A stretch of DNA of 43,024 bases from Promethearchaeota archaeon (GTDB lineage: Archaea > Asgardarchaeota > Thorarchaeia > Thorarchaeales > Thorarchaeaceae), in assembly GCA_048939765.1 (NCBI GenBank), contig JBHLPF010000032.1:1-43024 (forward strand), read 5' to 3'. The position numbers and the translations under genes were made by a program. Under the pieces are notes generated by a model. That model was not told where the DNA came from. It made no database searches and saw only the letters and a list, made by a program, of their open reading frames with translations. Below, piece after piece: positions 1 to 35,131 of this stretch. Each line of letters opens with the position of its first letter. Position 1 is the stretch's first letter.

Positions 1-40
1 ATCCTTTAAATTCGCTCCTCGGAGTCGTCGGCTCAGCAAT

Positions 41-148
41 GCGCTCGTTGTCTAGGGGCTATGATGGATCCCTGCCAATGCGCGGGGGTTTATCCCTCGG
101 AACCGTAGAACGGATCCGGCCCGGGTTCGAATCCCGGCGAGCGCACCA
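41..148 (+). tRNA. tRNA-Gly(GCC) with 33-nt intron at 37/38 (78-110)
   Basis: Acceptor stem GCGCTCG/CGAGCGC, anticodon stem GATCC/GGATC with CT-GCC-A, T-arm CCGGG TTCGAAT CCCGG, encoded CCA. BHB central helix CTGC/GTAG. TTTAAA TATA-like box at 5-10. Confidence 0.95.
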
Positions 149-236
149 CTTCTTCTTCAGCCCTATGACTCAATTCTTCTAAAGGCAAGTCTTAGGAAGC
201 CCTTATCAACAACTACTAGGAGTCAAGCACAAAATC

Positions 237-425
237 TTGGTGAAGCTGATGAGCCACAAAAGAGCAATAGTTTGGGCAGTAGCGGGAGTCTTCATAATGT
301 TCTCGTTCTTCGAGCTAATGAATTTGGCACTCAGTAGTGGAGACATCCTTATAGGACTCGTATTGACACTAATAGCAGCGGGAATTGGCTTCTACATACT
401 AGGATACGGCTTTGACATAGAATAG
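237..425 (+). CDS. Small membrane protein (2 hydrophobic helices)
   Basis: 62-aa ORF with two hydrophobic stretches, filling the space between repeats 1 and 2. Confidence 0.65.
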   Translation: MVKLMSHKRAIVWAVAGVFIMFSFFELMNLALSSGDILIGLVLTLIAAGIGFYILGYGFDIE

Positions 426-446
426 ATAGGCTAAATGAATTCATAG

Positions 447-468
447 TCGATTCCCGGCGAGCGCACTA
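447..468 (+). repeat. tRNA-Gly 3'-end copy 2
   Basis: TCGATTCCCGGCGAGCGCACTA, 20/22 match to 127-148. Confidence 0.85.
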
Positions 469-486
469 TTCCCCTAATTGTGGTTT

Positions 487-1569
487 CTATTTTACCAGAC
501 TCTCAAAAAGCCGGGCTGATCTATTATCCTGAGGATCAGTTTCAACTGCCTGCTTCAATGCTTCCCGTGCTTCCTTGATGCGGTTCTGCTTTAGCAGGGC
601 AATTCCAAGGTCACACCAGGCAGCTGTGAGTGACGGGTCAATTCCAATAGCCGATCTTAGTGCACTTTCCGCTTCTTCGTATTTGCTTTGAGCGAGCAAG
701 CATTTACCCAATGTGTGGGGGAAGCCAGCATATTCAGGGGACTCTTCAGCCAGTTTCCTGTACTTAGCTTCAGCCTGGGGCATGCTTCCCAAGCCACTCA
801 AAGAGATAGTGAACAACTGTCTGGCTCTAGGGTTAATTTGACTCAGTTCTGCTCGTTTAGTCGAGAGATCTATTAACCCAATCTCTTCAAGTTTTGCCCC
901 AAGTCTATCGATTGCAAAGTCAGTAAGTGGCTCAATCCTTATTGCATTCTCATATGCTTCAAGAGCCTCATCTAACATGCCTTGCTTGAGCAAGACAACT
1001 CCTAGTTTGACCCACACCACATAGCTCCCGCTGTTGAATTGAAGGGCTTTCTGATAACTATGGATAGCTTCTTCGTATTTCTGGTCGCGTTGTTGAAAAT
1101 CGGCCAACTTCTCCCACTGAAATGAATCATCTGGATGGGTTCTCACGCCTTCTTCATAGGCTTCCTCTGCTGATACTTCAAGACCCAGCTCAGCAGATAG
1201 CTCAGCAATGTGGTTCCATGACGAGGTGTCGTCAGGCTTTCTAGAAACTGCTTCGCGAAAGCATTCTATTGCCTCAATCTTGAGGCCTTCTGACATCAAG
1301 AAGAAACCTAGCTGCCTCAGGGCGTTGGGACTCGCTTCATGAGTCCGAGCAGCCTCTCTTAGCATTGTCTTGGCAGCCTCTCTTTCACCATGATTGTAAA
1401 GGAATATTGCGTAGGAAGTCAAACCCGCCTCGAATTCCGGATAAGTAGATGTCAATTCTATATAGGTGTCCTCAGCTGCTCTGTGATCTCCTTTCTGTTC
1501 AAACTCAATGGATTTGGTCAAGAGTCCAAATGCTCTTTCATGTCGTATCCAATTCCGAATCCTACGCAA
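487..1569 (-). CDS. Tetratricopeptide-repeat protein
   Basis: Multiple TPR consensus repeats (W..LG..L...G...EA...Y..A). Confidence 0.9.
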   Translation of the reverse strand: MRRIRNWIRHERAFGLLTKSIEFEQKGDHRAAEDTYIELTSTYPEFEAGLTSYAIFLYNHGEREAAKTMLREAARTHEASPNALRQLGFFLMSEGLKIEAIECFREAVSRKPDDTSSWNHIAELSAELGLEVSAEEAYEEGVRTHPDDSFQWEKLADFQQRDQKYEEAIHSYQKALQFNSGSYVVWVKLGVVLLKQGMLDEALEAYENAIRIEPLTDFAIDRLGAKLEEIGLIDLSTKRAELSQINPRARQLFTISLSGLGSMPQAEAKYRKLAEESPEYAGFPHTLGKCLLAQSKYEEAESALRSAIGIDPSLTAAWCDLGIALLKQNRIKEAREALKQAVETDPQDNRSARLFESLVK

Positions 1570-1655
1570 CGCCTATTCTTCCAGTGATAGCATTGGATTA
1601 GTAGCATATAGATTATCGTGAGCGGAACTTGATACAGCCGTTACAAGCCTATGAA

Positions 1656-1693
1656 CCGGGTTCAAATCCCGGCGAGCGCACCATTTCTTCTTC
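1656..1693 (+). repeat. tRNA-Gly 3'-end copy 3
   Basis: 36/38 match to 121-158. Confidence 0.95.
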
Positions 1694-1846
1694 GTCATCT
1701 AGAGCAATACTGACAGCTGAAACTACTGCAGGATTATGGTTTCGATTTTAGTAGCGTTATTGGATGGAACGTTCTTGTACGTTCAGGCTGGGTAGATAAA
1801 TTGCCAATCAAAACCTTCATGAAGCAGATTGCAGCGATTTCTTTTG

Positions 1847-2767
1847 ATGCCCCAACTAGATTATATTGACAAGAAGATTCTTGGCATTCTAGTTCATGAT
1901 TGCAGAACTCCCTATCGGGAGATTGCTAAATCTCTAGGAATGTCCGCCACTGCTATCAAGAGTAGAGTCGATGAAATGGTTGCTGCTGGAGTCATAACAG
2001 ACTTCATTGTCGAGTTTTCATCAGCCATGATTGGCTCAGAGGTCATGATGCTGTGGCTTAAAACAGATGGCACAGAGGACAGAGAGCAGTTCATTTCAGA
2101 GATTGGAAAAAACAGAGGCGTCATGCAGATTGTCCCTCTCTATGGAGGGGACTATCTGGTATTTGCTGAGTATACGAGTTCACTCGAGCTGGCGACTCTT
2201 GCTGAAGCCTTCAAGAGCAATCCATATGTCAGTTTCACTGAAATGCATACTCTACTTGAAGTCATGCAGCAAGGTAGGAAGACAATCCTAACGAATCTTC
2301 AGCTAAGGGTTCTCAAAGCACTCCTTAAGGATGCCAGGATGTTGATTAGTGACATCTCGAGAGAAACTGGTCTGACAGTGCGGCTTGTTAGAAGGACACT
2401 GCGAGAACTAAAAGAGAGTGAAGCAATTAGGTTCTCACTCAGATGGTGTCTCAACGTGGGTGAAAGGGTTACCTTTCTTCTGAAATTGAAATGGGACTCA
2501 AAGCAAGCGTCAAGGAAGGAGATCAGAGATATGCTGTTGAAAAACTATGAGGATGAACTCTGGGATATTCTTGTATCTGCAAGTGACCCGATTCTGATTG
2601 GTGTTGCGACTGTTGACAACCTGAATAATATCGACATTATTACAAACGAGATTAGGTCGCACCCTGGTATATTATATTCTGACGCCTTCATTTACAGACG
2701 CCCATATAACTACAAGAGCATCAAGAGACTCAGTCTTGAGGAAGCCGTTCAGGCGGCTGGAGTCTAG
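1847..2767 (+). CDS. Lrp/AsnC-family regulator with two tandem wHTH+ligand-binding modules
   Basis: LDYIDKKILGILVHDCRTPYREIAKSLG and a second HTH LTNLQLRVLKALLKDARMLISDISRETG. Alternative TTG start at 1829. Confidence 0.85.
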   Translation: MPQLDYIDKKILGILVHDCRTPYREIAKSLGMSATAIKSRVDEMVAAGVITDFIVEFSSAMIGSEVMMLWLKTDGTEDREQFISEIGKNRGVMQIVPLYGGDYLVFAEYTSSLELATLAEAFKSNPYVSFTEMHTLLEVMQQGRKTILTNLQLRVLKALLKDARMLISDISRETGLTVRLVRRTLRELKESEAIRFSLRWCLNVGERVTFLLKLKWDSKQASRKEIRDMLLKNYEDELWDILVSASDPILIGVATVDNLNNIDIITNEIRSHPGILYSDAFIYRRPYNYKSIKRLSLEEAVQAAGV

Positions 2768-2906
2768 TTGGACTCAATTCAGCCACTTTGTAAGACATGT
2801 TCTTTACAAAATGACGCTCTTGGAGCCTCTTCTGATGTTTTTTTCAACTTCATTTCTAACACAGCTAGATATCCTGTTCTTGCATATGATAGCCCTGTGA
2901 ATCATC

Positions 2907-3125
2907 ATGACAGAATTGCAGGAAAAAGCGAAGGAAAGTGAAAGCCACACTGCAACTGAGATTCACGGGCAAAGTAAGGCCTTTGGAGACTTCTATGCAG
3001 TGAAGGGGTTTGATTCCCAGGTATCGAATAATTCAGTACCTGAAATCTTTGCTGGACCAATTCTTGGTCATGACCTCACAATAGAAACCAGAAAACGCTG
3101 GTTTAGGAGGTATAAAATTGGATGA
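2907..3125 (+). pseudogene. Possible decayed N-terminal fragment of an ABC ATPase
   Basis: EIHGQSKAFGDFYAVKGFDSQV...EIFAGP resembles the ABC ATPase N-terminus but has no intact Walker A. Confidence 0.45.
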
Positions 3126-4059
3126 AGTGATTATTAGAGATTTAACAAAGAAATTCGACGACTTGACAGCTGTCGATCATATTGAGTTGAATGTCCCTGA
3201 AGGCTCAATCTATGGGCTACTGGGACCAAATGGAGCAGGCAAGTCCACAACAGTTCGGCTTCTCTGTACTCTACTCAGACCCAGTGAAGGTACAGCGTCC
3301 GTTGGGGGCTTTGATATCATCGATTCACCAGTAAGTGTTCGAGAGATAACTGGTGTTATGCCAGAAGAGAGCAATCATACTCTCTATCCTACAATATCCA
3401 CCTATGAGAATTTGGAGTACTTCGGTAGGCTCTATAGAATTCCTGAGGGTGAGATACCAGAAAGGATAGAGGAGCTGCTGAATTTCATGGGTCTCTGGGA
3501 ACGAAAGGATGATCCTGCTGGAGAGTTGAGCACAGGCAACCGTCAACGTCTAGCTCTATGTCGTGCGTTACTCCACCGACCAAGAGTGGTATTGATGGAT
3601 GAGCCAACATCTGCCCTAGACCCAATTGCCGCCAAAAAGGTTCGAGAACTCATCATTAATCTTGCTGCTAAATATAGACAGACCTTTTTCATAAACTCAC
3701 ACAATCTAGCTGAAATCCAGAGAATGTGCGACAGGATTGCCATCATCGATGAGGGCCGAATCTTGCTCAGTGGCAAGACCAAGGAGCTTCAATCTAAATT
3801 GCAGGCTAGCCAGAATTTCACGATTCGCGTCAATGATGACTTGGAAAAGGCTCTGTCTATTGCCAAGTCTATGAAATTCGTTACGTCTGCTGAGGAAGAG
3901 GTGGATTCTATCCGGGTCACTATCGAGGACCCAGTAGGCAATAATTCAACTCTGATGCAATCATTGCTGTCAGAGGGTGTACAAATAATCGAATTTGCGG
4001 AACAAGAGGCGACATTGGAAGACCTATACCTTGATGTCATAAAGGGAGGTGTCACATAA
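3118..4059 (+). CDS. ABC-2 type transporter ATP-binding protein
   Basis: Walker A GPNGAGKS, signature LSTGNRQR, Walker B VVLMDEP. Confidence 0.95.
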   Translation: MDEVIIRDLTKKFDDLTAVDHIELNVPEGSIYGLLGPNGAGKSTTVRLLCTLLRPSEGTASVGGFDIIDSPVSVREITGVMPEESNHTLYPTISTYENLEYFGRLYRIPEGEIPERIEELLNFMGLWERKDDPAGELSTGNRQRLALCRALLHRPRVVLMDEPTSALDPIAAKKVRELIINLAAKYRQTFFINSHNLAEIQRMCDRIAIIDEGRILLSGKTKELQSKLQASQNFTIRVNDDLEKALSIAKSMKFVTSAEEEVDSIRVTIEDPVGNNSTLMQSLLSEGVQIIEFAEQEATLEDLYLDVIKGGVT

Positions 4060-4814
4060 TGGTTCTAAGGAATTCGATGCTCGTTGCCAGAACTGACTTA
4101 CGAATGGCAATGAAAGTGAAGATGGTCAAGTATGGTCTACTTGTGATGGGCGCAATGGCACCTATCATGCTAATTGGACTTGTCCTACTGGTTGCATTTT
4201 CAACGCCTGCAGTTGCAGCGACTATCATAACAATGCTGGATCCAATGATGTCACCTGTGATTGGAATTATGGCCATCGTTCCAGCGTCTATGATCTCTGC
4301 TAATGCCCTTGTAGGTGAAAAAGAACAGAACACTCTTGAGCCGCTCCTATGCACACCCCTGACAGATCGTGAACTCCTGATTGGTAAAGTGTTGAGCTCA
4401 TTCATCCCGACCATTGCTCTACTACTTGGATCGGTCTTTGTCACAGAGATAGCCACGAATATCATACTCACGTCTGTGGGAGCTGAGGTAATACTCTTTC
4501 CAGGAGTTCCTAGTCTGTTTCTACTTCTAGTGGCAGGTCCCATTCTAATTGCGGCAGTGGTATCAGTGATGGTTCTCATCAGTGGGAAGGTCAAGCGTGT
4601 CTATGAGGCCTATCAGTCCTCTGGAGTAGTCGTTATGGTCTTTCTGATTCCCCTGATTCTACCCATGTTGTCAATGAATCCTGGAGGAAGTGTGGACATC
4701 AACCTTGTATGGTTGTCTAACATTGTCACATTACTATTCGCATCCGTATTGGCAATTGTCACATGGACCCTAGCAGTCAAGAGATTCAACCGTGATAAAA
4801 TAGTATCAATGTAG
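4059..4814 (+). CDS. ABC-2 type permease
   Basis: About 6 TM segments, GEKEQNTLEPLLCTPLT motif, translationally coupled to the ATPase. Confidence 0.9.
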   Translation: MVLRNSMLVARTDLRMAMKVKMVKYGLLVMGAMAPIMLIGLVLLVAFSTPAVAATIITMLDPMMSPVIGIMAIVPASMISANALVGEKEQNTLEPLLCTPLTDRELLIGKVLSSFIPTIALLLGSVFVTEIATNIILTSVGAEVILFPGVPSLFLLLVAGPILIAAVVSVMVLISGKVKRVYEAYQSSGVVVMVFLIPLILPMLSMNPGGSVDINLVWLSNIVTLLFASVLAIVTWTLAVKRFNRDKIVSM

Positions 4815-4880
4815 TCGATGAGGACATCAAGCTCTCTTTGTGTTTGATAGAGCTGAGCTGTAGTCTGGAGAGATCACAAG

Positions 4881-5267
4881 ATGAATTCAACTGAGATGAT
4901 GGAGAGGTTTCGGCAATTCGCTTCAGCCGACCTCTTCACCATCACTCCCAATCGGATGCATCAGGTTTCAGAGATTCTTCTCAAAACCGGTGCAATACGC
5001 ATCATCCTGACAAGATATGAGTACAGGACAGAGAGCCTTGATGTTGATATTGAGGTCTCTCTGCCCTTCCTGCCAGCAACTTCCGATGTAACATCGATAG
5101 AGGAATATATTGATAGTATGATTGCTACTCTTGAGTATCTGAAACGTCTCGCTTTCATCGGGTTCGACTTGGAAACGCTTCAAGAAGAAGGCATCCTCAT
5201 AGCCTCCACTGCTTTTAGTGTGGATACGGAAGAGTCTGTTTTCAAAGCCCTTGAGCCTCCACATTAG
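4881..5267 (+). CDS. Hypothetical protein
   Basis: 128-aa ORF with GGAG upstream and protein-like composition. Confidence 0.65.
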   Translation: MNSTEMMERFRQFASADLFTITPNRMHQVSEILLKTGAIRIILTRYEYRTESLDVDIEVSLPFLPATSDVTSIEEYIDSMIATLEYLKRLAFIGFDLETLQEEGILIASTAFSVDTEESVFKALEPPH

Positions 5268-5425
5268 ATAACCGCAGCCGGTCAAATTCTGGATTTCAAG
5301 ATTTGATGAAGCAAGTCAATCTGTAAAGGACTTCAAGGGCTCTGATCCCCAAGGAAATGACGAGATTCTTGAGGCATATTGTCAACGACGGCGGAAATAG
5401 CAGGGTAGAATCTGGAGCTTTCATT

Positions 5426-5464
5426 CCGGGTTCGAATCCCGGCGAGCGCACCACTTCTTCTTCA
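5426..5464 (+). repeat. tRNA-Gly 3'-end copy 4 (perfect)
   Basis: 39/39 identical to 121-159. Confidence 0.97.
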
Positions 5465-5505
5465 CCGTCCTATGCAGGACAACACGTAAATCCTGAGAGA
5501 GTGAG

Positions 5506-5955
5506 ATGCTTGGCATGAATAGGCATCTTCTCCATATGGCTGCTCGTGTGTGGCTGATTGAAACGCTATTCTCCATATTCAATTTCTTTGTTCTCATGAA
5601 TCTCGTCTATGAACCAACCTGGGGTGGATTGGTAGCACACCAGCTAGGGATGTCAACCAGAATTGTGGTTATCGTTATTCTCGCTTATCTGCTACTTCGA
5701 TATGTCAAGGAATACGAAACGATAGACCTTGTTCATGTAGGGTTGCTCTGGCTAGGACTGGAGCTATTGTTCGAATGGGGTGGCAGTCTATTGGTTGGGC
5801 GATCTGTAGATGAAATCCTCATTGGATGGAACATCTTTGCGGGCTACATTTGGCCCTATGTACTACTTACGTACCTACTATCCAACCTGGTCATAGGTGT
5901 AGTTTTCCATCCGGGGAAAAGAGCAACTGGTCATAGCTCCAAGATTAGAGATTGA
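5506..5955 (+). CDS. Membrane protein (about 4 TM)
   Basis: Hydrophobic 149-aa ORF filling the space between repeats 4 and 5. Confidence 0.8.
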   Translation: MLGMNRHLLHMAARVWLIETLFSIFNFFVLMNLVYEPTWGGLVAHQLGMSTRIVVIVILAYLLLRYVKEYETIDLVHVGLLWLGLELLFEWGGSLLVGRSVDEILIGWNIFAGYIWPYVLLTYLLSNLVIGVVFHPGKRATGHSSKIRD

Positions 5956-5985
5956 CGGTGACTGAAAGCGAACTCCTTGTAGCTC

Positions 5986-6011
5986 TCGAATCCCGGCAAG
6001 GTCACCGCTTC
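5986..6011 (+). repeat. tRNA-Gly 3'-end copy 5 (degenerate)
   Basis: TCGAATCCCGGCAAGGTCACCGCTTC, 22/26 match to 127-152. Confidence 0.75.
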
Positions 6012-6118
6012 CTGCTCTACCTGATTCGTTAACCATACAATAGGGGCAAATTGTGATTGCTAGAGCGGTCCTATGCAAGATTGAAAAGGAAGTTGGCATC
6101 TAGTGCTCTTTTGGCGAG

Positions 6119-7246
6119 TTGAGTCGGATGCAAAAGGGTACTACTGGACCCGGTTCTAAGACACACCCTGTAGTAGCTGTGCTTTCTAGGGTGCCAATGA
6201 AATTCACCTATACGATAGTCCTCGTTGGTATACTGACCTATGCTGGGTTCTTTCTTCTTACTCTATTGACCGGCCAGATAACACAGGTCTTCTTCTCATT
6301 CATGCATCTGGTGCAATTAGATTTCTCCTTATTGATATCTGTCGGACTCTTCTTCCTTTTCAGTTACTACAAGACATTGGAGAGAAGGCTCAGAGAGATT
6401 CGATATGTCTTCCTAATCGATGATGATGATTTCGAGAGATATCTCGATGATTTGACCAGCAAGATGAGTAGCGCACGGGGCTACCTGCTGGGTCTTCCGT
6501 TTATCGCTCTATCAATAGCTTCAATCTTTCTCTTTGTAATGCCGACAATGCCTAATGCTCTATTCCCAGTTAATCCGCTGTCACCTGTTTGGCTCTACCT
6601 GTCCATAATCGAGTTCAGCCTCATTATGCTTCCATTGTTCGGAGTAGCTATCTGGCTAGGCGTGGTAGTAATGTCAGTTTCAAAAGACATCGGACGAAAG
6701 CTGGAGATTACGGTGGAGCCAATTTCACCTGATCGTGCAGGAGGACTAGTTTCATTCTCCGAAGTGCTCTTGAGAGGCGTATTCATGTTTTCACTATTGC
6801 TAGTACTGTTGATTCCCCTGCTCGCCTACCTTGTGCACAATCTAAGCTCAAGTAGCCCCTTATTGGCTCTAATTCCCACAGCAGGCTTAGTGTTGGCAAT
6901 TATGACAATTTCCGTATTCTTTTTGGTCCCTCAATATCACATTCACAGCATCTTGGAGGAACAGAAAAAGAAGCACCTGTCCCAAGTCAGTAGAGAAGTG
7001 AATGATGCTCTTTCCAACATACGGGGCATGCTCTCTGCTCCCTCTACAAAGTCTGACATTCCATCTCAGCAGCTCACACTTGTAAGCCTTCAACTCACGA
7101 TGCTCTTTGAACAAGTTGAAAAAATGAAGACCTGGCCCTCCACTCTCTGGATAGCAGCTAAGGCAATCAGCTCTTTGTTGCTTATTCTGCTAACATTCTT
7201 TGTGAATCAGCTGCTCCTGTACTACATAGAATCGATTCTTAGCTAA
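6119..7246 (+). CDS. Polytopic membrane protein of unknown function
   Basis: About 7 hydrophobic helices, with PISPDRAGGL and KTWP motifs. Confidence 0.8.
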   Translation: MSRMQKGTTGPGSKTHPVVAVLSRVPMKFTYTIVLVGILTYAGFFLLTLLTGQITQVFFSFMHLVQLDFSLLISVGLFFLFSYYKTLERRLREIRYVFLIDDDDFERYLDDLTSKMSSARGYLLGLPFIALSIASIFLFVMPTMPNALFPVNPLSPVWLYLSIIEFSLIMLPLFGVAIWLGVVVMSVSKDIGRKLEITVEPISPDRAGGLVSFSEVLLRGVFMFSLLLVLLIPLLAYLVHNLSSSSPLLALIPTAGLVLAIMTISVFFLVPQYHIHSILEEQKKKHLSQVSREVNDALSNIRGMLSAPSTKSDIPSQQLTLVSLQLTMLFEQVEKMKTWPSTLWIAAKAISSLLLILLTFFVNQLLLYYIESILS

Positions 7247-7352
7247 CGAACATCAGAATTTGATTCTAAATACTCTTGGACATTCCTAACCTTTGACTTT
7301 TCAGAGTCCGCTTGTTAATCTCTAAATTTATGGTTAATAAGACCCCAGCGGT

Positions 7353-7380
7353 CCGGGTTCGAATCCTGGCGAATGCACTA
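7353..7380 (+). repeat. tRNA-Gly 3'-end copy 6 (degenerate)
   Basis: CCGGGTTCGAATCCTGGCGAATGCACTA, 24/28 match to 121-148. Confidence 0.85.
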
Positions 7381-7469
7381 TTCCCTCGCAGATTATTTGA
7401 CTAATATGATGACGCAAGCTAAACTATATCTCGGATGAATTGCAATGGGACAAGTAGGGATGACCAACA

Positions 7470-7712
7470 ATGATGAACAAGTTCCAAGATCTGATGAATG
7501 CCAAAGCTCTAGTACAACTGGTAGTGGATGCGATAACTGATAGAGCACATCATAAAGTTGTCAAGGGCACAATAAGACTTGTCACAAGGAACTACATAGA
7601 AATTGGCAGAGTGGCTACGCAGGATGAGAAGGCCCAGTTTGGTAGAGATGAAGTCAGAGTGATAATTCCAATGGAGAAGATTGCCGAGGTAATTTACTCG
7701 CCAAGTGAGTGA
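7470..7712 (+). CDS. Small hypothetical protein, possibly Sm/SH3-like beta fold
   Basis: 80-aa ORF with beta-strand patterning. Confidence 0.6.
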   Translation: MMNKFQDLMNAKALVQLVVDAITDRAHHKVVKGTIRLVTRNYIEIGRVATQDEKAQFGRDEVRVIIPMEKIAEVIYSPSE

Positions 7713-7730
7713 GTGTATGCGAGATTGTGG

Positions 7731-8735
7731 TCAATCCGGACCCCCGTGAATCCTGACGGCGTTCTCCCAATAGAGTTTGCTAAGAACTGATACAGGCAAA
7801 TCAAGGCCATTGATGAAAGTCCCACCAGTGTTTTTTGTGTCTGCATCATCGAATGGGAGGGGTCTTTCTCTGACACTGGTTTCCCATAGCAGCCGCTGGG
7901 CAAGATATCTACCTGCAAAATAGTCCTGACCTCCTCTGTTGGTTGACAGATCCGTGCCAAACATGATTCTGTCAGAATACTTCAGCAAGAAGTCGCGAGC
8001 TATATCGACATCCTTGCTCAGCTCTCTTGCCATCCATCGTGAGGATGCAGTATCAAGGAATACATTTGGAAATCTGTCCAGCCATTTGGTAAGGTTTGGG
8101 AGGCGATGTATCTCTGGCTGTGAGCCAAAGTGGGGGAGCTGGAAGACAAGGCGTGAATGACGTTCTATAACATTCTCAAGTTGTGCAAGACTGTCCGCCT
8201 TGGTGCCGTACTTCTTCTTATCTTGATAGTGCAAGTCGTAGTATGTATCGGGATCGGCAACGTGAAGCAGAAGAGGGACATCATGATCCTCAAGGGCCTG
8301 AAAGATTGGATCTAGACGGAGATCATCAATTCTGAAGTCATTGGGCACTTCCTGGTAGTAGTCCTTCCAACGAGGACCGAACCACATCTTTGCAAGTCCG
8401 TAGCCCTCCGACTTGATTCTCTCAATGACCGCTATGACTTTATCAACCTCAAAATTCGCAACGTCACTAAGAGATAGATACTTTGCAAAAACGAACCTGT
8501 TCGGAAACCGCTTCTTTATTGGTTTTAGGTCACTCTCTCCATGAACAATAGCAACCTGAGATGCGACGTTAAACTCTTCTTCGATCTTCACCATCTGAAT
8601 TAGATCATCTGAGTGACCGATATGCGTATGTGCATCGAAGATTGGTCCTTTGTATTTCCACTCTTCTGTCAAATTTGACCAATTCTGCGATATTATAGGT
8701 GTTGAAAAGCGATTCCATTCAGGACCTTCTCTCAA
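7731..8735 (-). CDS. Amidohydrolase family protein
   Basis: IFDAHTH metal motif, LLLHV, PHFG, RIMFGTD, YWENAVRI. Confidence 0.9.
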   Translation of the reverse strand: MREGPEWNRFSTPIISQNWSNLTEEWKYKGPIFDAHTHIGHSDDLIQMVKIEEEFNVASQVAIVHGESDLKPIKKRFPNRFVFAKYLSLSDVANFEVDKVIAVIERIKSEGYGLAKMWFGPRWKDYYQEVPNDFRIDDLRLDPIFQALEDHDVPLLLHVADPDTYYDLHYQDKKKYGTKADSLAQLENVIERHSRLVFQLPHFGSQPEIHRLPNLTKWLDRFPNVFLDTASSRWMARELSKDVDIARDFLLKYSDRIMFGTDLSTNRGGQDYFAGRYLAQRLLWETSVRERPLPFDDADTKNTGGTFINGLDLPVSVLSKLYWENAVRIHGGPD

Positions 8736-8759
8736 TTGAGCTAGTCAAAGAGCTTCTCT

Positions 8760-9662
8760 TTGACGGTTGCCTTATGTAAGACTCAACTCTTAAGATGGAT
8801 TTTGATTTTGACGAGTCGAGAGAATTCAATGATGACATCCGTAGCGCTTCTGAAATTCGAGGATAGCCTCAAGAGCACACTCACCGCGGGCTTGAACCTT
8901 ATTGGTGGGTTTTCGAATCTGAAATCACCTGTACTCATTAAGCCTAACATCTGCACGATTTCTGATGGTACTGGCTCGTCAGTCACAGACGTGAAAGTCA
9001 TCGAGGCGATTGCTAGACTAATCCTTGAGCAAGATCAAGGATTGGCCATCAAAATAGTCGAATCAGACAGTCAGAGTAAGTACGCTGAAGAGGCCTTTGA
9101 GAAGTTCGGATATGCGGACTTAGAGAGGAAAATGAAGAAAGAAGGCTTCGATGTGTTTCTGGTCAATCTCAGCAAATCTCCTCTTGTCAAAGCAGACTTC
9201 AAAGGGAGATACTTCAATAGGCCTGAGCTGCCAGAACTGCTAGTCGATCCCCACTGCTTTGTCACTGTCGCTGCAGCTAAGACACATTATCTTACTACCA
9301 TCACTGGAGCTTTGAAGAACCAGTTCGGAGTGCTTCCCAGGAAGGACCAATCCTTCTATCATCCCAATATTGATGATGTGGTGATAGATCTGAATAATCT
9401 CCTGCAACCGGACCTATGCATTGTTGATGCAAGAGTTGCTGTGGAGGGATGGAATGGACCTAGAACGAAGCGACTTGATGCCTTCATCATGGGGCGCAAG
9501 CCTGCTTCAGTCGATGCCACAATGGCTCGGATCATGGGCCTCAAACCAAGTGAGATTCGACATGTACTGGAATCTAGCAAGCTAGGTCTTGGCAACATTG
9601 ACCCAATAGTCTTGGGAGAAACCATTGAATCAGTGCAGGTCGCTTTCAATCTGCCTAGATGA
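8760..9662 (+). CDS. DUF362 domain protein
   Basis: VLIKPN, KTH...TGALKNQFG, SVDA motifs. True start is probably the ATG near 8829. Confidence 0.85.
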   Translation: MTVALCKTQLLRWILILTSRENSMMTSVALLKFEDSLKSTLTAGLNLIGGFSNLKSPVLIKPNICTISDGTGSSVTDVKVIEAIARLILEQDQGLAIKIVESDSQSKYAEEAFEKFGYADLERKMKKEGFDVFLVNLSKSPLVKADFKGRYFNRPELPELLVDPHCFVTVAAAKTHYLTTITGALKNQFGVLPRKDQSFYHPNIDDVVIDLNNLLQPDLCIVDARVAVEGWNGPRTKRLDAFIMGRKPASVDATMARIMGLKPSEIRHVLESSKLGLGNIDPIVLGETIESVQVAFNLPR

Positions 9663-9688
9663 CTATGTTTCTTATGCATCCAACTTAA

Positions 9689-10177
9689 ATGAAGAATGTA
9701 GCTGGAACCGCGAGGAGCAAAGAGTCAGTGAAAAGAGTTCTATTCCTGTGTACTGGTAATTCAGCACGCAGCCAGATGTCCGAGGCTTTACTAAGACTAC
9801 TGGGCGGAGATGGATTTGAAGCCTACAGTGCTGGTACACATCCGGCATCTGAAGTGAACCCCTTTGCCCTAGAGGTCTTGAGAGAGAGGGGGGCTAGCAC
9901 AGAGGGCCTTTTTACGAAGACTATTGATTACTTTGCAGGACAGGAGTTTCATCTTGCAGTGACAGTCTGTGATAATGCAAAACAGGAGTGCCCAGCTTTT
10001 CCTGGAGCTAGAACAATAGATCATTGGTCACTAGAAGATCCTGCATCCTTTGAGGGGACCTATGATGAGATTCTCTTGAAATTCAGAGAAACTAGGGATG
10101 AAATCGAGAGAAGAATCAAGACGTATATTCTTCAGGACAAGCTTGCGGAGGATCCCTTGAAATCACTCAGATTGTAG
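9689..10177 (+). CDS. arsC: Arsenate reductase, LMW-PTP fold
   Basis: FLCTGNSARSQM P-loop, VTVCDNAKQECP, HWSLEDP. Confidence 0.9.
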   Translation: MKNVAGTARSKESVKRVLFLCTGNSARSQMSEALLRLLGGDGFEAYSAGTHPASEVNPFALEVLRERGASTEGLFTKTIDYFAGQEFHLAVTVCDNAKQECPAFPGARTIDHWSLEDPASFEGTYDEILLKFRETRDEIERRIKTYILQDKLAEDPLKSLRL

Positions 10178-10185
10178 ATTAGGCA

Positions 10186-12195
10186 TTAGCCCTCCTCTAC
10201 CCAAGAGAACTTCCTCTGCAGAGTTGCAGGGTAAACCTTTCGCCAAGGATACTCCACCTTCTGACACCACTTGTAGATTGTCCTAGGATGGATGTATGAC
10301 TTGAGGGATGTTCCGAGGTTCCAGGTGCGACAGTCCCGTGCGAGGTAGTAATCCACCTCTATCTTGCGCTTCGCTAGCTTGGCCTTTTCCACTCGGTCCT
10401 TTTCGATTTTGACCGTCTTCTCAGCACGAGCCATACGTGCAGAAGACTTCTCTTTGAAATCTGCAAGAGATAGTTGCTTCTTCTCAAGAGTTGCCCTGCT
10501 CTTGTTGTAACGCTCCCGGGAGCTTGTGAGGCCCTCCTCCGCCGTGTCCAGACGCAGTCTACTCCGGTCTATACTGGCTTGGGCATCTTCAAGGCGCTGT
10601 TTCTTAGTGGTCTTGCCCTTCCTCTTGCTTCCTCTTGTTCGACGTTTTCTGTCACGAGCATTGTCCCAAGTCATCTTGGCGTTGTTTCGCTTCTCACGCC
10701 AAGCAACAACCGACTGCTTGTTTTTCTCAACAAGCTGCTTTTGCTTAGAAACTGCAGATTGGCGCTTAGCAAGGTTCTCTTTCTCTTTCTTCTTGAACGC
10801 CCTCAGTCGTTTCCTTTTTTCAGCAAGCCGAGATTCAGCTTTCTTGACACGTTCTTCCGCCTTTCTGATTCGTTCCTTATAGCGGTCTGCTGACCTAGCC
10901 CATCCTTTCGGTGCTTGTTTTGTGTGATTCATCACCCGTGCAACCTCAAGGTTGGCACGTTTCAGTGCCTCCTTCTTGATGAATTCCGGATCAGTTCTTT
11001 TGGCCTTGCCCCGACCAAGCTCCTTTTTCATTGTTAGAGTGGCGTGAAATGTCCTAAAGACCTTAGCAGTGAGGTCTTTGTCGAATCCACCAAGGAAACG
11101 ATTGACTTGTGCGCTTCCCACCCTTGGGAAGATTTGTGCTGGTTTTTTCGGATCTACACGAGTGCTCTTGCCCTTCCGTGTCCTGAAAGACTCTAATCGC
11201 TCCACTGCATTATCATAGAGCTCTCTAAACACCCTATAGACATCAGGTGACAATTCCAGTTCTTTATGCCAGGGCACACTGTCCTTTCCAAGAAAGTCAA
11301 AGACGACGGAACTGGGTGTGAATGTGAGATGCTCGATTCTTAGTGTAGTAGCACCCACGGTGTCGGCTTCATCTGGATCTTTCTCATCACCAACTCGCAG
11401 GCTCAATCTGTCTATTAGATAGCATGCAGCTGCTATCATTCTTGTCTTTGAGTTGCCAGAATGAAGACCATCCATGATGTATTCTCGAATCTCATCTATC
11501 TTCCTAGATATCTTCATGGCTTTGTCAAACTTGGCCGCCTCACGCTCTTGTTTGATAGGAGTACTGTCATGGAGCCAGATGTACTTTGTACTCTTGGTGA
11601 GCTCATCGGTCCATTTGGCAACCCACATGCTATCTGGAGCCCATTCGATTTTGGCCCAGTCCCCTTCCGGGACCGCTGCATCTGGACTCAAGTTCAAGGT
11701 GATGTCCTGTTCCCTTGCACCCTGCTTCCATCGCCCACGCAGAGGATGCTCCCCTCGGCCCATGAAGATACCAGATGGTTCTGTCTGGTAGTTGCCAAGT
11801 TCCATGCGCACCCCATCTACAAGGGCATAACCAAATTCCTCTTTCAGTCGTTCACGTTCTGCCTTGCGAGCCTCCCTTCCGGCTCTCTTCTCCTCCTTTG
11901 TCATGGCATCCTTTGCAGCACGTTCTTCTTCAACGAATTGAATTACAGAAGAAAAGTCAACCTCTTCTGGGTCTAGCGGGGGTTCCACCTTCAGTGCTTT
12001 GCTGAAGTCACTCATGAAGTTCTCAATGAAGACAGAATCCTCAACATAGGGTGTTCCTAGTTTTCTCACCCAGGCGACCGCCATCTCTTCTTGAAGCTGA
12101 TTGAGAACTATGGACTCGCCTCGAACAACTATCTCAAAATGATGCGGCTCTGGTGGTCTGAGTACAATGATGCCTTTATGTTCGAAGGACTCCAT
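10186..12195 (-). CDS. DNA topoisomerase IB (eukaryote-like)
   Basis: EPSGIFMGRGEHPLRG, LRVGDEKD, FDFLGKDSV, LTAKVFRT, NH, LGTSLKSYIHPR (catalytic R,K,R,H,Y). Confidence 0.95.
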   Translation of the reverse strand: MESFEHKGIIVLRPPEPHHFEIVVRGESIVLNQLQEEMAVAWVRKLGTPYVEDSVFIENFMSDFSKALKVEPPLDPEEVDFSSVIQFVEEERAAKDAMTKEEKRAGREARKAERERLKEEFGYALVDGVRMELGNYQTEPSGIFMGRGEHPLRGRWKQGAREQDITLNLSPDAAVPEGDWAKIEWAPDSMWVAKWTDELTKSTKYIWLHDSTPIKQEREAAKFDKAMKISRKIDEIREYIMDGLHSGNSKTRMIAAACYLIDRLSLRVGDEKDPDEADTVGATTLRIEHLTFTPSSVVFDFLGKDSVPWHKELELSPDVYRVFRELYDNAVERLESFRTRKGKSTRVDPKKPAQIFPRVGSAQVNRFLGGFDKDLTAKVFRTFHATLTMKKELGRGKAKRTDPEFIKKEALKRANLEVARVMNHTKQAPKGWARSADRYKERIRKAEERVKKAESRLAEKRKRLRAFKKKEKENLAKRQSAVSKQKQLVEKNKQSVVAWREKRNNAKMTWDNARDRKRRTRGSKRKGKTTKKQRLEDAQASIDRSRLRLDTAEEGLTSSRERYNKSRATLEKKQLSLADFKEKSSARMARAEKTVKIEKDRVEKAKLAKRKIEVDYYLARDCRTWNLGTSLKSYIHPRTIYKWCQKVEYPWRKVYPATLQRKFSWVEEG

Positions 12196-12361
12196 CTTAA
12201 CGCCTCTTCATTTGGCGGATTTAGGCAGAAGGTCGGTCACTCAGCGTGATTTTGCAGCCCAGTGTCGAGAGCAGAAATATGTAAACAAAAGGATTGCGCT
12301 GAGGGAGTCATCCAGAGCGATTAGTTTAAATCGAATCCGTCTGGTCTGCGCTCTAGAACCT

Positions 12362-12436
12362 GCGGCCATAGTCTAGGGGTTATGATCCGAGCCTTCCAAG
12401 CTCGTAACCCGGGTTCGAATCCCGGTGGCCGCACCA
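12362..12436 (+). tRNA. tRNA-Gly(TCC)
   Basis: Cloverleaf GCGGCCA/TGGCCGC, anticodon CT-TCC-AA, encoded CCA. Confidence 0.97.
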
Positions 12437-26933: not shown

Positions 26934-27428
26934 ATGATTCCGAAAACAGTTGAGATAGATGGGATGAAGATGACAGGAAGACAAATTGATGAAGAGACTC
27001 AGGAAAAACTAACACAGCTGTTCGATTCTCAACTGATCGCTGTATTGGGCACCTCAAGTGATGATGATCCATACACCTGTCTTGTGGGGTTTGAGTTCAC
27101 CTCGGACCTCAGGAATGTCATTTTTGCAACCATGAGGAATCGCTTGAAGTATCGTCAAATCAGTTCAAACCCCAGAGTCTCATTGATCATAGATAATCGC
27201 AAGAATGCTCCTTCGGACTTCAGTCACGCCACATCGGTTACAATTGTAGGCACTGCAATAGACACTGAAGAACCAGAGCGCATGAGGCTTGCGGACATGC
27301 TGGTTGAGAAACATCCTTTCTTGACCGACTTCGTCAAGGATTCCGACTGTGCCATTATGAAAGTCATGGTCGAGAAGATGTATATTGTTGGCGATTTTGA
27401 GAGAGTGCAAAGAATCAACATGGCATAG
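26934..27428 (+). CDS. Pyridoxamine 5'-phosphate oxidase-like (split-barrel) protein
   Basis: AVLGT...PY, KYRQISSNPRVSLIID. Confidence 0.85.
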   Translation: MIPKTVEIDGMKMTGRQIDEETQEKLTQLFDSQLIAVLGTSSDDDPYTCLVGFEFTSDLRNVIFATMRNRLKYRQISSNPRVSLIIDNRKNAPSDFSHATSVTIVGTAIDTEEPERMRLADMLVEKHPFLTDFVKDSDCAIMKVMVEKMYIVGDFERVQRINMA

Positions 27429-27477
27429 TCTCGCTCAACCAATTCTCTTTTAAGAATATGAAAATGTGAAACAGTTA

Positions 27478-27586
27478 GGGCCCGTTGCCTAGTCTGGTTT
27501 CAGTGAGCTTTTCGCTTCTGAAAGGCATATAGGGCGCTAGCCTTCTAAGTTAGAGGTCGACGGTTCAAATCCGTCCGGGCCCGCCA
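27478..27586 (+). tRNA. tRNA-Arg(TCT) with 31-nt D-loop intron (27498-27528)
   Basis: GGGCCCG/CGGGCCC acceptor, CT-TCT-AA, strict BHB around the intron, encoded CCA. Confidence 0.93.
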
Positions 27587-35011: not shown

Positions 35012-35131
35012 GCGGAGGTTGCCAAGCCTGGCCAAAGGCGCTAGGTTGAGGGCCTAGTTCAGTAGTGATTCGCGAGACTCCGGGTAATTCGTAGACTCGG
35101 GGCGCGCATTCAAATCTCGCCCTCCGCACCA
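35012..35131 (+). tRNA. tRNA-Leu(GAG) with 32-nt intron at 53/54 (35077-35108)
   Basis: GCGGAGG/CCTCCGC acceptor, CTAGG TT-GAG-GG CCTAG, variable arm, T-arm GCGAG|TTCAAAT CTCGC interrupted by a BHB-like intron. Confidence 0.92.

Follow-up and report, generated by a model that had tools for sequence, protein, structure and literature searches.

Our data show that a region at the 3' end of the tRNA-Gly(GCC) gene of a Thorarchaeota genome is a stack of small cargo-only units (0.3–7 kb, mostly of one gene), bounded by copies of a core sequence derived from that tRNA, and that Thorarchaeota species of two genera have such units in common, have gained or lost them and carry them in differing order, with the joins lying inside the tRNA-derived core. 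The DNA studied is a contig of 43,024 nucleotides (JBHLPF010000032.1 of NCBI GenBank assembly GCA_048939765.1), here called the window; it is the entire contig C36 of a metagenome-assembled genome (MAG), G000, which comprises 3.37 Mb in 108 contigs and is 88.5% complete. We read the region as an additive island of attachment-site (att)-bounded, cargo-only units that would be moved in trans by an unlinked site-specific recombinase, with homologous recombination helping. We infer this mechanism, and put its probability at about even.

A stack of units bounded by copies of a tRNA 3' end

The array is anchored by a tRNA-Gly(GCC) gene with a 33-nt intron (78–110) at position 38 and an encoded CCA, which ARAGORN found with introns allowed (-i) and which both default ARAGORN and Rfam missed. 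Behind it, five co-oriented copies of the tRNA 3' end bound five units, c1 to c5 (Table 1). A 23-mer with up to three mismatches gave five matches against 0.00 expected, and a 16-mer gave seven against 0.13. A preliminary description of the window, made from its letters alone, had reported this layout and proved accurate on reading the sequence: the repeat positions and identities are exact, all copies lie on the plus strand between open reading frames (ORFs), they match the acceptor strand of the GCC isoacceptor (GGCGAGCGCAC) and not that of tRNA-Gly(TCC) (GGTGGCCGCAC), and the units hold the genes it listed, one each in four of the five.

Repeat 3 and the matching segment of the tRNA gene (121–159) bracket c1–c3 as a single 5.3-kb block. 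At the distal end of the array, the right half of repeat 5 and its tail remain with the conserved downstream gene in a relative, G002. We rejected two other origins for the repeats. They are not 3' halves of split or tri-split tRNAs, since they begin at the T-arm and not at position 37/38, and several are decayed; nor are they reverse-transcribed tRNA copies, since all tRNA genes of G000 encode CCA and the repeats run past CCA into genomic tail.

Units differ in content and order among related species

The comparison took in the same locus in related genomes, 16 from the same genus (g1) and 12 from another genus of the family (g5). In these 28 genomes variable content lies between conserved upstream and downstream flanks, and 24 of 33 loci have at least two co-oriented repeats. 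The loci contain 43 bounded units with a median length of 1171 bp (range 286–6942), 27 of which have a single ORF. The ORFs in units fall into 44 families, 18 of them recurring in at least two loci; 64 cassette ORFs are forward and 26 reverse (n = 90), and c2 lies on the minus strand.

The tRNA is directly followed by different units in different species. With array contents labelled by c or K numbers, the order behind the tRNA is c2, K20, c4, c5 in G005; c2, c4, K20 in G010; c3 only in the closed chromosome of G004; c5 only in G012; and c1, c2, K30, K20, c4, c5, K17, K12 in G015. In G002 c5 lies ahead of c3, and G011 and G007, of the same genus, have the tRNA without any repeat behind it. Unit c1, present in G015 and at 66% identity in G002, is absent from G005 and G010, where the tRNA abuts c2; the unit that follows c2 differs among four genomes. 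We found c4 in five upstream contexts in genus g1 and also within arrays of g5, and c5 in eight genomes of the two genera at differing positions.

Changes of content coincide with the repeats. The alignment blocks of the window's array have 54 internal ends, and for 35 of them a repeat is no more than 120 nt away, against a random expectation of 9.9 on average and at most 24 in 10,000 trials; the other block ends are indels within c3. The order of units conflicts between loci for the pairs K6/K12, K6/K17, K10/K20, K10/K25, K13/K17 and K13/K30, and also for c3 versus c4 and c5, so that differential loss from one ancestral order cannot yield the pattern. The preliminary description had proposed to compare related genomes for units that come, go and change places at the repeats, and had named fixed gene order, breakpoints away from the repeats and remnants of integrase-bearing elements as signs to the contrary. 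Over two genera and 28 genomes, presence, absence and order change at the repeats, breakpoints coincide with them, and no integrase remnants were found.

Several units are also more similar between lineages than core DNA is. As a baseline we used 20 kb of the window's core DNA, in which G000 is 70–74% identical to the clade of G004 and G010 and 89–91% identical to G015. Against this, c3 of G004 shows 85–89% nucleotide identity (core DNA, 70–72%), c2 of G010 shows 81% (72–74%), and the block of tRNA, c1 and c2 in G015 shows 96% (89–91%). A single long array inherited vertically and lost piecemeal, with nothing moving, would account for the several genomes that differ merely by presence or absence at repeats. 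We consider such a static relic very improbable, as it is contradicted by at least eight independent pairwise order conflicts, by the identity of c3 between lineages whose core DNA is far more diverged, and by the species-to-species variation of the unit directly behind the tRNA.

Empty and alternative forms in environmental DNA

We next to these genomes drew on Logan contigs from four runs of other studies. Matches down to 90% identity were accepted, so the contigs may stem from different species; they cannot show rare forms, and parts without cover in runs X5, X6 and X8 were not interpreted. The contigs carry the junctions tRNA–c2, tRNA–c4, tRNA–c5, c2–c4, c2–c5 and c5–c3. In one junction c1 is missing (146>487), in a c2–c4 junction of run X6 c3 is exactly missing (1693>5432), and in run X5 the tRNA is joined to c4 (155>5427). 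These alternative junctions indicate that empty and alternative forms coexist in nature; the empty sites for which the preliminary description had proposed to look thus appear as junctions on contigs of other samples.

Chimeric joining of strains through the repeats would fit the start of the contig only 40 nt ahead of the tRNA, the c3–c4 adjacency, which occurs in G000 only, and the Logan contigs that end at the 39-nt repeat. Against such an artefact, the 77-nt overlap of neighbouring contig ends implies k = 77, longer than the 39-nt repeat, and contigs of an independent sample bridge the repeats at 447, 1656, 5986 and 7353. The same junction types, moreover, occur in sister genomes, and such arrays recur in dozens of independent assemblies that include a closed chromosome. 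Misassembly is unlikely, and to strain chimerism as the source of the array we attach next to no weight.

Joins lie within the tRNA-derived core

All strong copies share a core of about 30 nt (CCGGGTTCGAATCCCGGCGAGCGCACCACT) made up of the two strands of the T-stem with the T-loop between them, followed by the acceptor strand, CCA and 2 nt; the tail past the core is pyrimidine-rich and unit-specific. What lies to the left of the T-loop, the CCGGG stem strand among it, remains coupled to the upstream unit; the stem 3' strand, acceptor strand and tail remain coupled to the downstream unit. For example, a CCAGG stem variant follows c5 in G002 and G009 behind different neighbours, and the decayed core ahead of the backbone gene is identical whether it is preceded by c5 (G000) or by c3 (G002). 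Where two junctions have the downstream unit alone in common, their excess identity sets in at T-loop position 14, continues through the acceptor strand and tail, and is absent from the T-stem 5' strand; where they have the upstream unit alone in common, it ends at about position 11. These patterns suggest that the join lies in the T-loop between the inverted stem strands, as in the core sites of tyrosine recombinases; the signal is modest and fits a fixed crossover. Conserved "arm" motifs beside the core were sought by eye in 50 junctions, and none was convincing.

At the right end of one unit, just upstream of the tRNA-Gly core, we observed a second T-arm-like sequence, GGTTCGAAC, within CCGGGAACTGCGTTC...GTCGG. 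It occurs in L026 (G009:C107, ~2485–2530), L065, L067 and L111, is conserved in both genera and a metagenome contig, and may be a remnant of another tRNA's end.

The units carry cargo genes without a recombinase

The cargo consists mainly of membrane, secreted and regulatory proteins, with TPR, TetR, NosD/beta-helix, FG-GAP, zinc phospholipase C-like, GNAT, epimerase and radical-SAM proteins among the kinds found. Scans of the cargo with Pfam and PADLOC found no replication, virus, conjugation or recombination genes. A defence function of the cargo was rejected, as PADLOC gave generic HTH and TPR matches only. One three-gene unit is common to arrays of both genera (L033, G014:C120; L061, G086:C255) and encodes a Cys-rich protein of 535–545 aa without a Pfam family, a cytidylate-kinase-like P-loop protein and a radical-SAM protein like spore-photoproduct lyase; it could be a DNA-modification or defence module.

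The preliminary description had noted the lack of an integrase, and we likewise found none in or near any array. PF16795 is matched in none of 17 genus genomes and the repeats are intergenic, unlike the sites of SSV-type split integrases. We built a custom model from 16 Thorarchaeota integrases, which detected two divergent left-out integrases at ~1e-11, and obtained no match in 645 kb from 87 array-bearing loci, including 23 JGI metagenome contigs. Scans of metagenomes and GTDB with a 25-mer returned Thorarchaeota arrays and single tRNAs, none with an integrase; the searched collections are incomplete, and the absence of an integrase-bearing element at this att is not proven by them. We rejected the relatives' own integrases as the source of activity, because the loci of 20 related, sporadic tyrosine recombinases of the family have no tRNA, core copy or generic T-arm/CCA motif. 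No PF00589 match occurs in 13 of 17 genus genomes or 25 of 41 family genomes, among them 95–99% complete ones and the one-contig G056. G000 itself is without a PF00589 match and hence without a XerA-type enzyme, which raises the question of how these archaea resolve chromosome dimers.

A model for unit movement and its rivals

In the mechanism that we favour, each unit would arrive as DNA with its own copy of the core, and this copy would recombine with that of the tRNA gene or of a repeat already in place. The crossover would fall in or next to the 7-nt T-loop, flanked by inverted T-stem strands in the layout of a tyrosine-recombinase core site. The enzyme, encoded in neither the units nor the island, would most likely be supplied in trans by an unlinked or unbinned mobile element, and homologous recombination between the 30–39-nt repeats would add deletions, block moves and repeat homogenisation. 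This keeps part of the preliminary description, which had proposed a gene-capture platform where tiny circles insert serially through a trans-acting recombinase or, alternatively, through homologous recombination. Its repeat-bounded modules with changes at the repeats stand; neither a circle nor, by searches for XerA- and SSV-type integrases, a candidate recombinase was found. Its alternative gains from signs of conversion and is separable from site-specific movement only by the modest crossover signal.

Several results weigh against movement by a trans-acting recombinase. PF00589, PF16795 and PF00239 found nothing above cut-off in the G000 assembly. PF00589 genes, present in 4 of 17 genus and 16 of 41 family genomes, do not occur on any contig with an array or next to any tRNA or core copy, and integrase presence is unrelated to array presence: G011 has two integrases but lacks an array. 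In IMG/VR, two exact-pattern scans for the core returned no viral contig. No contig has a terminal overlap, and no junction of a unit end to its own start, as circles would give, occurs in the Logan contigs of the four runs, where rare forms are invisible. The c5–c3 junction of G002 lies about 100 nt from the expected repeat position and has no repeat. Many internal repeats are decayed (4–6 mismatches in 21, some with deletions), so not every repeat is maintained as a working site. The crossover mapping draws on 21 and about nine junction pairs, which are non-independent. The identity of 121–159 and 5426–5464 spans 39 nt, past the common core into the tail, and the G000 tail at 5426 differs from the orthologous c4 tail by 2 nt in G005 and 3 nt in G015, a pattern that speaks for gene conversion or homologous recombination, or for a recent move of c1–c3 as one block. 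Between genera, finally, cassette proteins are 67–80% identical and backbone proteins 58–67%, a modest gap that implies that part of the sharing, perhaps much of it, is old.

Many of these points fit a picture without any site-specific enzyme, in which integrase-bearing elements integrated in the past, later lost all but their cargo, and left the repeats as fossil att scars. Present variation would then come from RadA-type homologous recombination between the 30–39-nt repeats, through deletion, circle re-insertion and replacement by relatives' DNA. The absence of a recombinase from the assembly and from the surroundings of every array, the decay of many repeats, the homogenisation of the repeats at 121 and 5426 beyond the core, and the roughly host-like divergence of cassettes between genera all speak for it. 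Against it, no integrase fragment, replication gene or virus gene occurs in 43 units and 645 kb, single-gene units down to 286 bp are hard to make repeatedly by erosion, and the switch from upstream-linked to downstream-linked sequence clusters at the T-loop instead of spreading over the core. New units, moreover, must still gain a copy of the tRNA end. We regard relics reshuffled by homologous recombination alone as a serious possibility, of clearly lower probability than transfer by an enzyme in trans.

Other tRNA genes count in favour of the mechanism preferred above and bear also on a third explanation. Following the preliminary description's suggestion to scan for 3'-end copies at other tRNAs, we found that tRNA-Asp, Cys, Ala and Ser of G000 are each followed by a single co-oriented repeat of their own 3' end, which starts in the T-loop and delimits one unit (Table 1). 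The cargo includes PEMT-like methyltransferases, two radical-SAM proteins with TetR, and unknowns. A dedicated, lineage-wide capture system, in which an unrecognised chromosomal recombinase reads the tRNA T-arm and serves many tRNAs, would explain why this layout recurs with a different acceptor sequence at each gene, and would fit the arrays in two genera without any known recombinase and the lack of PF00589 matches in 25 of 41 family genomes. Selection for an intact tRNA would in that case keep each unit tied to its own tRNA. We found no candidate gene, the tRNA being flanked upstream by an acyltransferase and a pyridoxal-phosphate (PLP)-dependent enzyme; a busy system is hard to square with the decayed sites and the partly host-like divergence; and ordinary integrases could be carried by plasmids and viruses, which are routinely missing from MAGs. 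Such a system is unlikely in our view, and the same low probability attaches to its fullest form, a chromosome-wide capture process of Thorarchaeota that would be integron-like yet built from other parts: an unrecognised recombinase, a T-loop crossover, and tiny cargo-only circles at many tRNA genes.

It is pure speculation that topoisomerase IB could be the capture enzyme. The window encodes this 669-aa protein (Topoisom_I_N, Topoisom_I and Topo_C_assoc domains) between its two tRNA-Gly genes, 2.8 kb from the array. It is single-copy in the assembly and the only enzyme found there with a tyrosine-recombinase-like catalytic fold; its position beside tRNA-Gly(GCC) is also conserved in genera without arrays.

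Gene gain and exchange in Asgard archaea bear on ideas of gene flow at the origin of eukaryotes, and the mobile elements of these archaea are poorly known. The locus is a natural, well-delimited hotspot in which species exchange one-gene modules that mostly encode membrane and surface proteins, with no recognisable recombinase. If a trans-acting or new enzyme is responsible, the 30-nt core offers a direct handle on the enzyme and its carrier; if homologous recombination alone is responsible, very short tRNA-derived repeats suffice for an integron-like shuffling of genes. A practical consequence is that MAG assemblies break at tRNA genes with such arrays and that annotation pipelines overlook the arrays; the anchor tRNA needs an intron-aware search.

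Features of the locus

Beyond the array, the window continues with a conserved backbone (Table 1). An older insertion at 7387–9729 was rejected, as its genes are backbone in both genera and are missing in one subclade only. In one relative only, G015, a 228-aa PARP-type zinc-finger protein is inserted between the amidohydrolase and DUF362 genes (L021, G015:C40, 10195–10881, minus strand), with no tRNA repeat near.

The 77 nt that open the window (1–77), up to the tRNA-Gly(GCC) anticodon, equal the end of contig C62 (G000:C62:7312-7388). The assembly graph broke within the tRNA gene, possibly because of strain differences directly behind the tRNA in the sample. Default tools miss, or detect only in part, two further intron-bearing tRNA genes of the window: one called as tRNA-Ala(UGC), its intron 202 nt long, at 27293–27586, of which Rfam detects only 27523–27583, and a tRNA-Leu-like gene at ~35012–35131, whose 5' and 3' ends are each one mismatch from tRNA-Leu(UAG) of contig C37.

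Table 1. Coordinates of the array, its backbone and the units at other tRNA genes of G000 (window positions unless a contig is given).
Feature	Coordinates	Strand	Description
tRNA-Gly(GCC)	41–148	+	Array anchor; same gene heads relatives' arrays
Reference att-like segment	121–159	+	T-stem 5' strand, T-loop, T-stem 3' strand, acceptor 3' strand, CCA, 11-nt tail
Unit c1	160–445	+	286 bp; ORF 237–425, 62-aa protein with two membrane helices
Repeat 1	446–468	+	20/22 (from 447); begins in T-loop, without T-stem 5' strand
Unit c2	469–1655	-	TPR protein, ORF 487–1569 (Pfam TPR families)
Repeat 2	1656–1693	+	36/38; T-loop variant TTCAAAT
Unit c3	1694–5425	+	3.7 kb; gene contents by Pfam
c3, tandem-HTH Lrp/AsnC regulator	1829–2767		
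c3, small ORF	2907–3125		
c3, ABC ATPase	3118–4059		
c3, ABC-2 permease	4059–4814		
c3, hypothetical protein	4881–5267		
Repeat 3	5426–5464	+	39/39; identical to 121–159 including 11-nt tail past CCA
Unit c4	5465–5985	+	149-aa membrane protein, ORF 5506–5955
Repeat 4	5986–6011	+	22/26; decayed; same decayed junction inherited in G015
Unit c5	6012–7352	+	375-aa protein with ~7 membrane helices, ORF 6119–7246
Repeat 5	7353–7380	+	24/28; distal end of array
Conserved backbone	7387–12436		Outside array; Pfam; gene order kept in both genera
80-aa ORF	7470–7712		Backbone
Amidohydrolase	7731–8735	-	Backbone, Pfam
DUF362	8760–9662		Backbone, Pfam
Low-molecular-weight phosphatase	9689–10177		Backbone, Pfam
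Eukaryote-type topoisomerase IB	10186–12195	-	Backbone, Pfam
tRNA-Gly(TCC)	12362–12436		Backbone
tRNA-Asp(GTC)	C12:1-1544		One cargo-only unit
tRNA-Cys(GCA)	C40:38412-39680		One cargo-only unit
tRNA-Ala(UGC)	C80:25636-30240		One cargo-only unit
tRNA-Ser(GCU)	C24:7426-9715		One cargo-only unit

Comparison with known systems

The preliminary description had called the array integron-like, and the label holds as an analogy only. Ghaly et al. are said to have described archaeal integrons in 2022. Like integrons, including chromosomal arrays and integrase-less attC clusters, the region is a row of mostly one-gene cassettes with a recurring site-like repeat and shuffled order, and cassette content and order vary at the sites between relatives. 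Unlike integrons, it has no IntI beside the array, no attI/attC architecture or attC palindromes with R and L boxes, and no co-oriented cassettes behind a common promoter, 26 of 90 cassette ORFs being reversed; its repeats are copies of a tRNA end.

Archaeal elements that integrate at tRNA genes, such as those with SSV-type "suicidal" integrases (PMC7253208) and thaumarchaeal ones (PMC6563490), share the tRNA 3' target, the duplicated att and the tandem re-use of a site. They measure at least 2.6 kb and carry an integrase, split in two for the SSV type, whereas PF16795 and PF00589 find none here. Cis-mobilisable elements (CIMEs) and tandem accretion in the ICESt1/ICESt3 family (PMC5704250), and the integrase-less ssrA islands of Dehalococcoides (PMC3146451), likewise consist of att-flanked units without an integrase; their movement, in cis or trans, is attributed to the integrase of a related element, and they build up one behind another at a conserved gene's 3' end (PMC5704250, PMC3146451). 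Our units are bounded by att copies and, by Pfam and PADLOC, have no recombination or transfer genes, as in CIMEs, and they are much smaller than CIME or ssrA units. For those systems the cognate element with the integrase has been identified and, in some strains, occupies the same site; here such an element on the same att was sought and not found in 87 array loci (645 kb), IMG/VR and the relatives' integrase loci, collections that are incomplete.

Islands with recurring tRNA 3'-end repeats are already in print for bacteria (PMC10872708; bioRxiv 10.1101/2020.12.28.424599); our literature search found no published description of integrase-less one-gene arrays in Asgard archaea. The tycheposon islands of Prochlorococcus (bioRxiv 10.1101/2020.12.28.424599) resemble the region in serial integration at a tRNA that pushes older elements inward, in partial tRNA copies and in adaptive cargo. 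Tycheposons carry a tyrosine or serine recombinase and a replication module (helicase/primase), and their islands hold fragmented integrases, in contrast to the 43 units and 645 kb analysed here, which have none. Flexible genomic island 2 (fGI-2) of 'Ca. Methylopumilus', in which the final 20 bp of tRNA-Lys recur as repeats (PMC10872708), is also a variable island directly behind a tRNA and punctuated by direct repeats of the tRNA end; its content varies by strain or species, consists mostly of hypothetical and envelope genes, and has no reported integrase. Unlike fGI-2, the region described here belongs to an Asgard host, its core is longer (~30 nt, from the T-stem) with a crossover mapped to the T-loop, and its single-gene modules are resolved, shared across two genera and shuffled in order. 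With variable content beside a conserved tRNA, between conserved flanks and punctuated by recurring tRNA 3'-end repeats, it has the features of an additive flexible genomic island.

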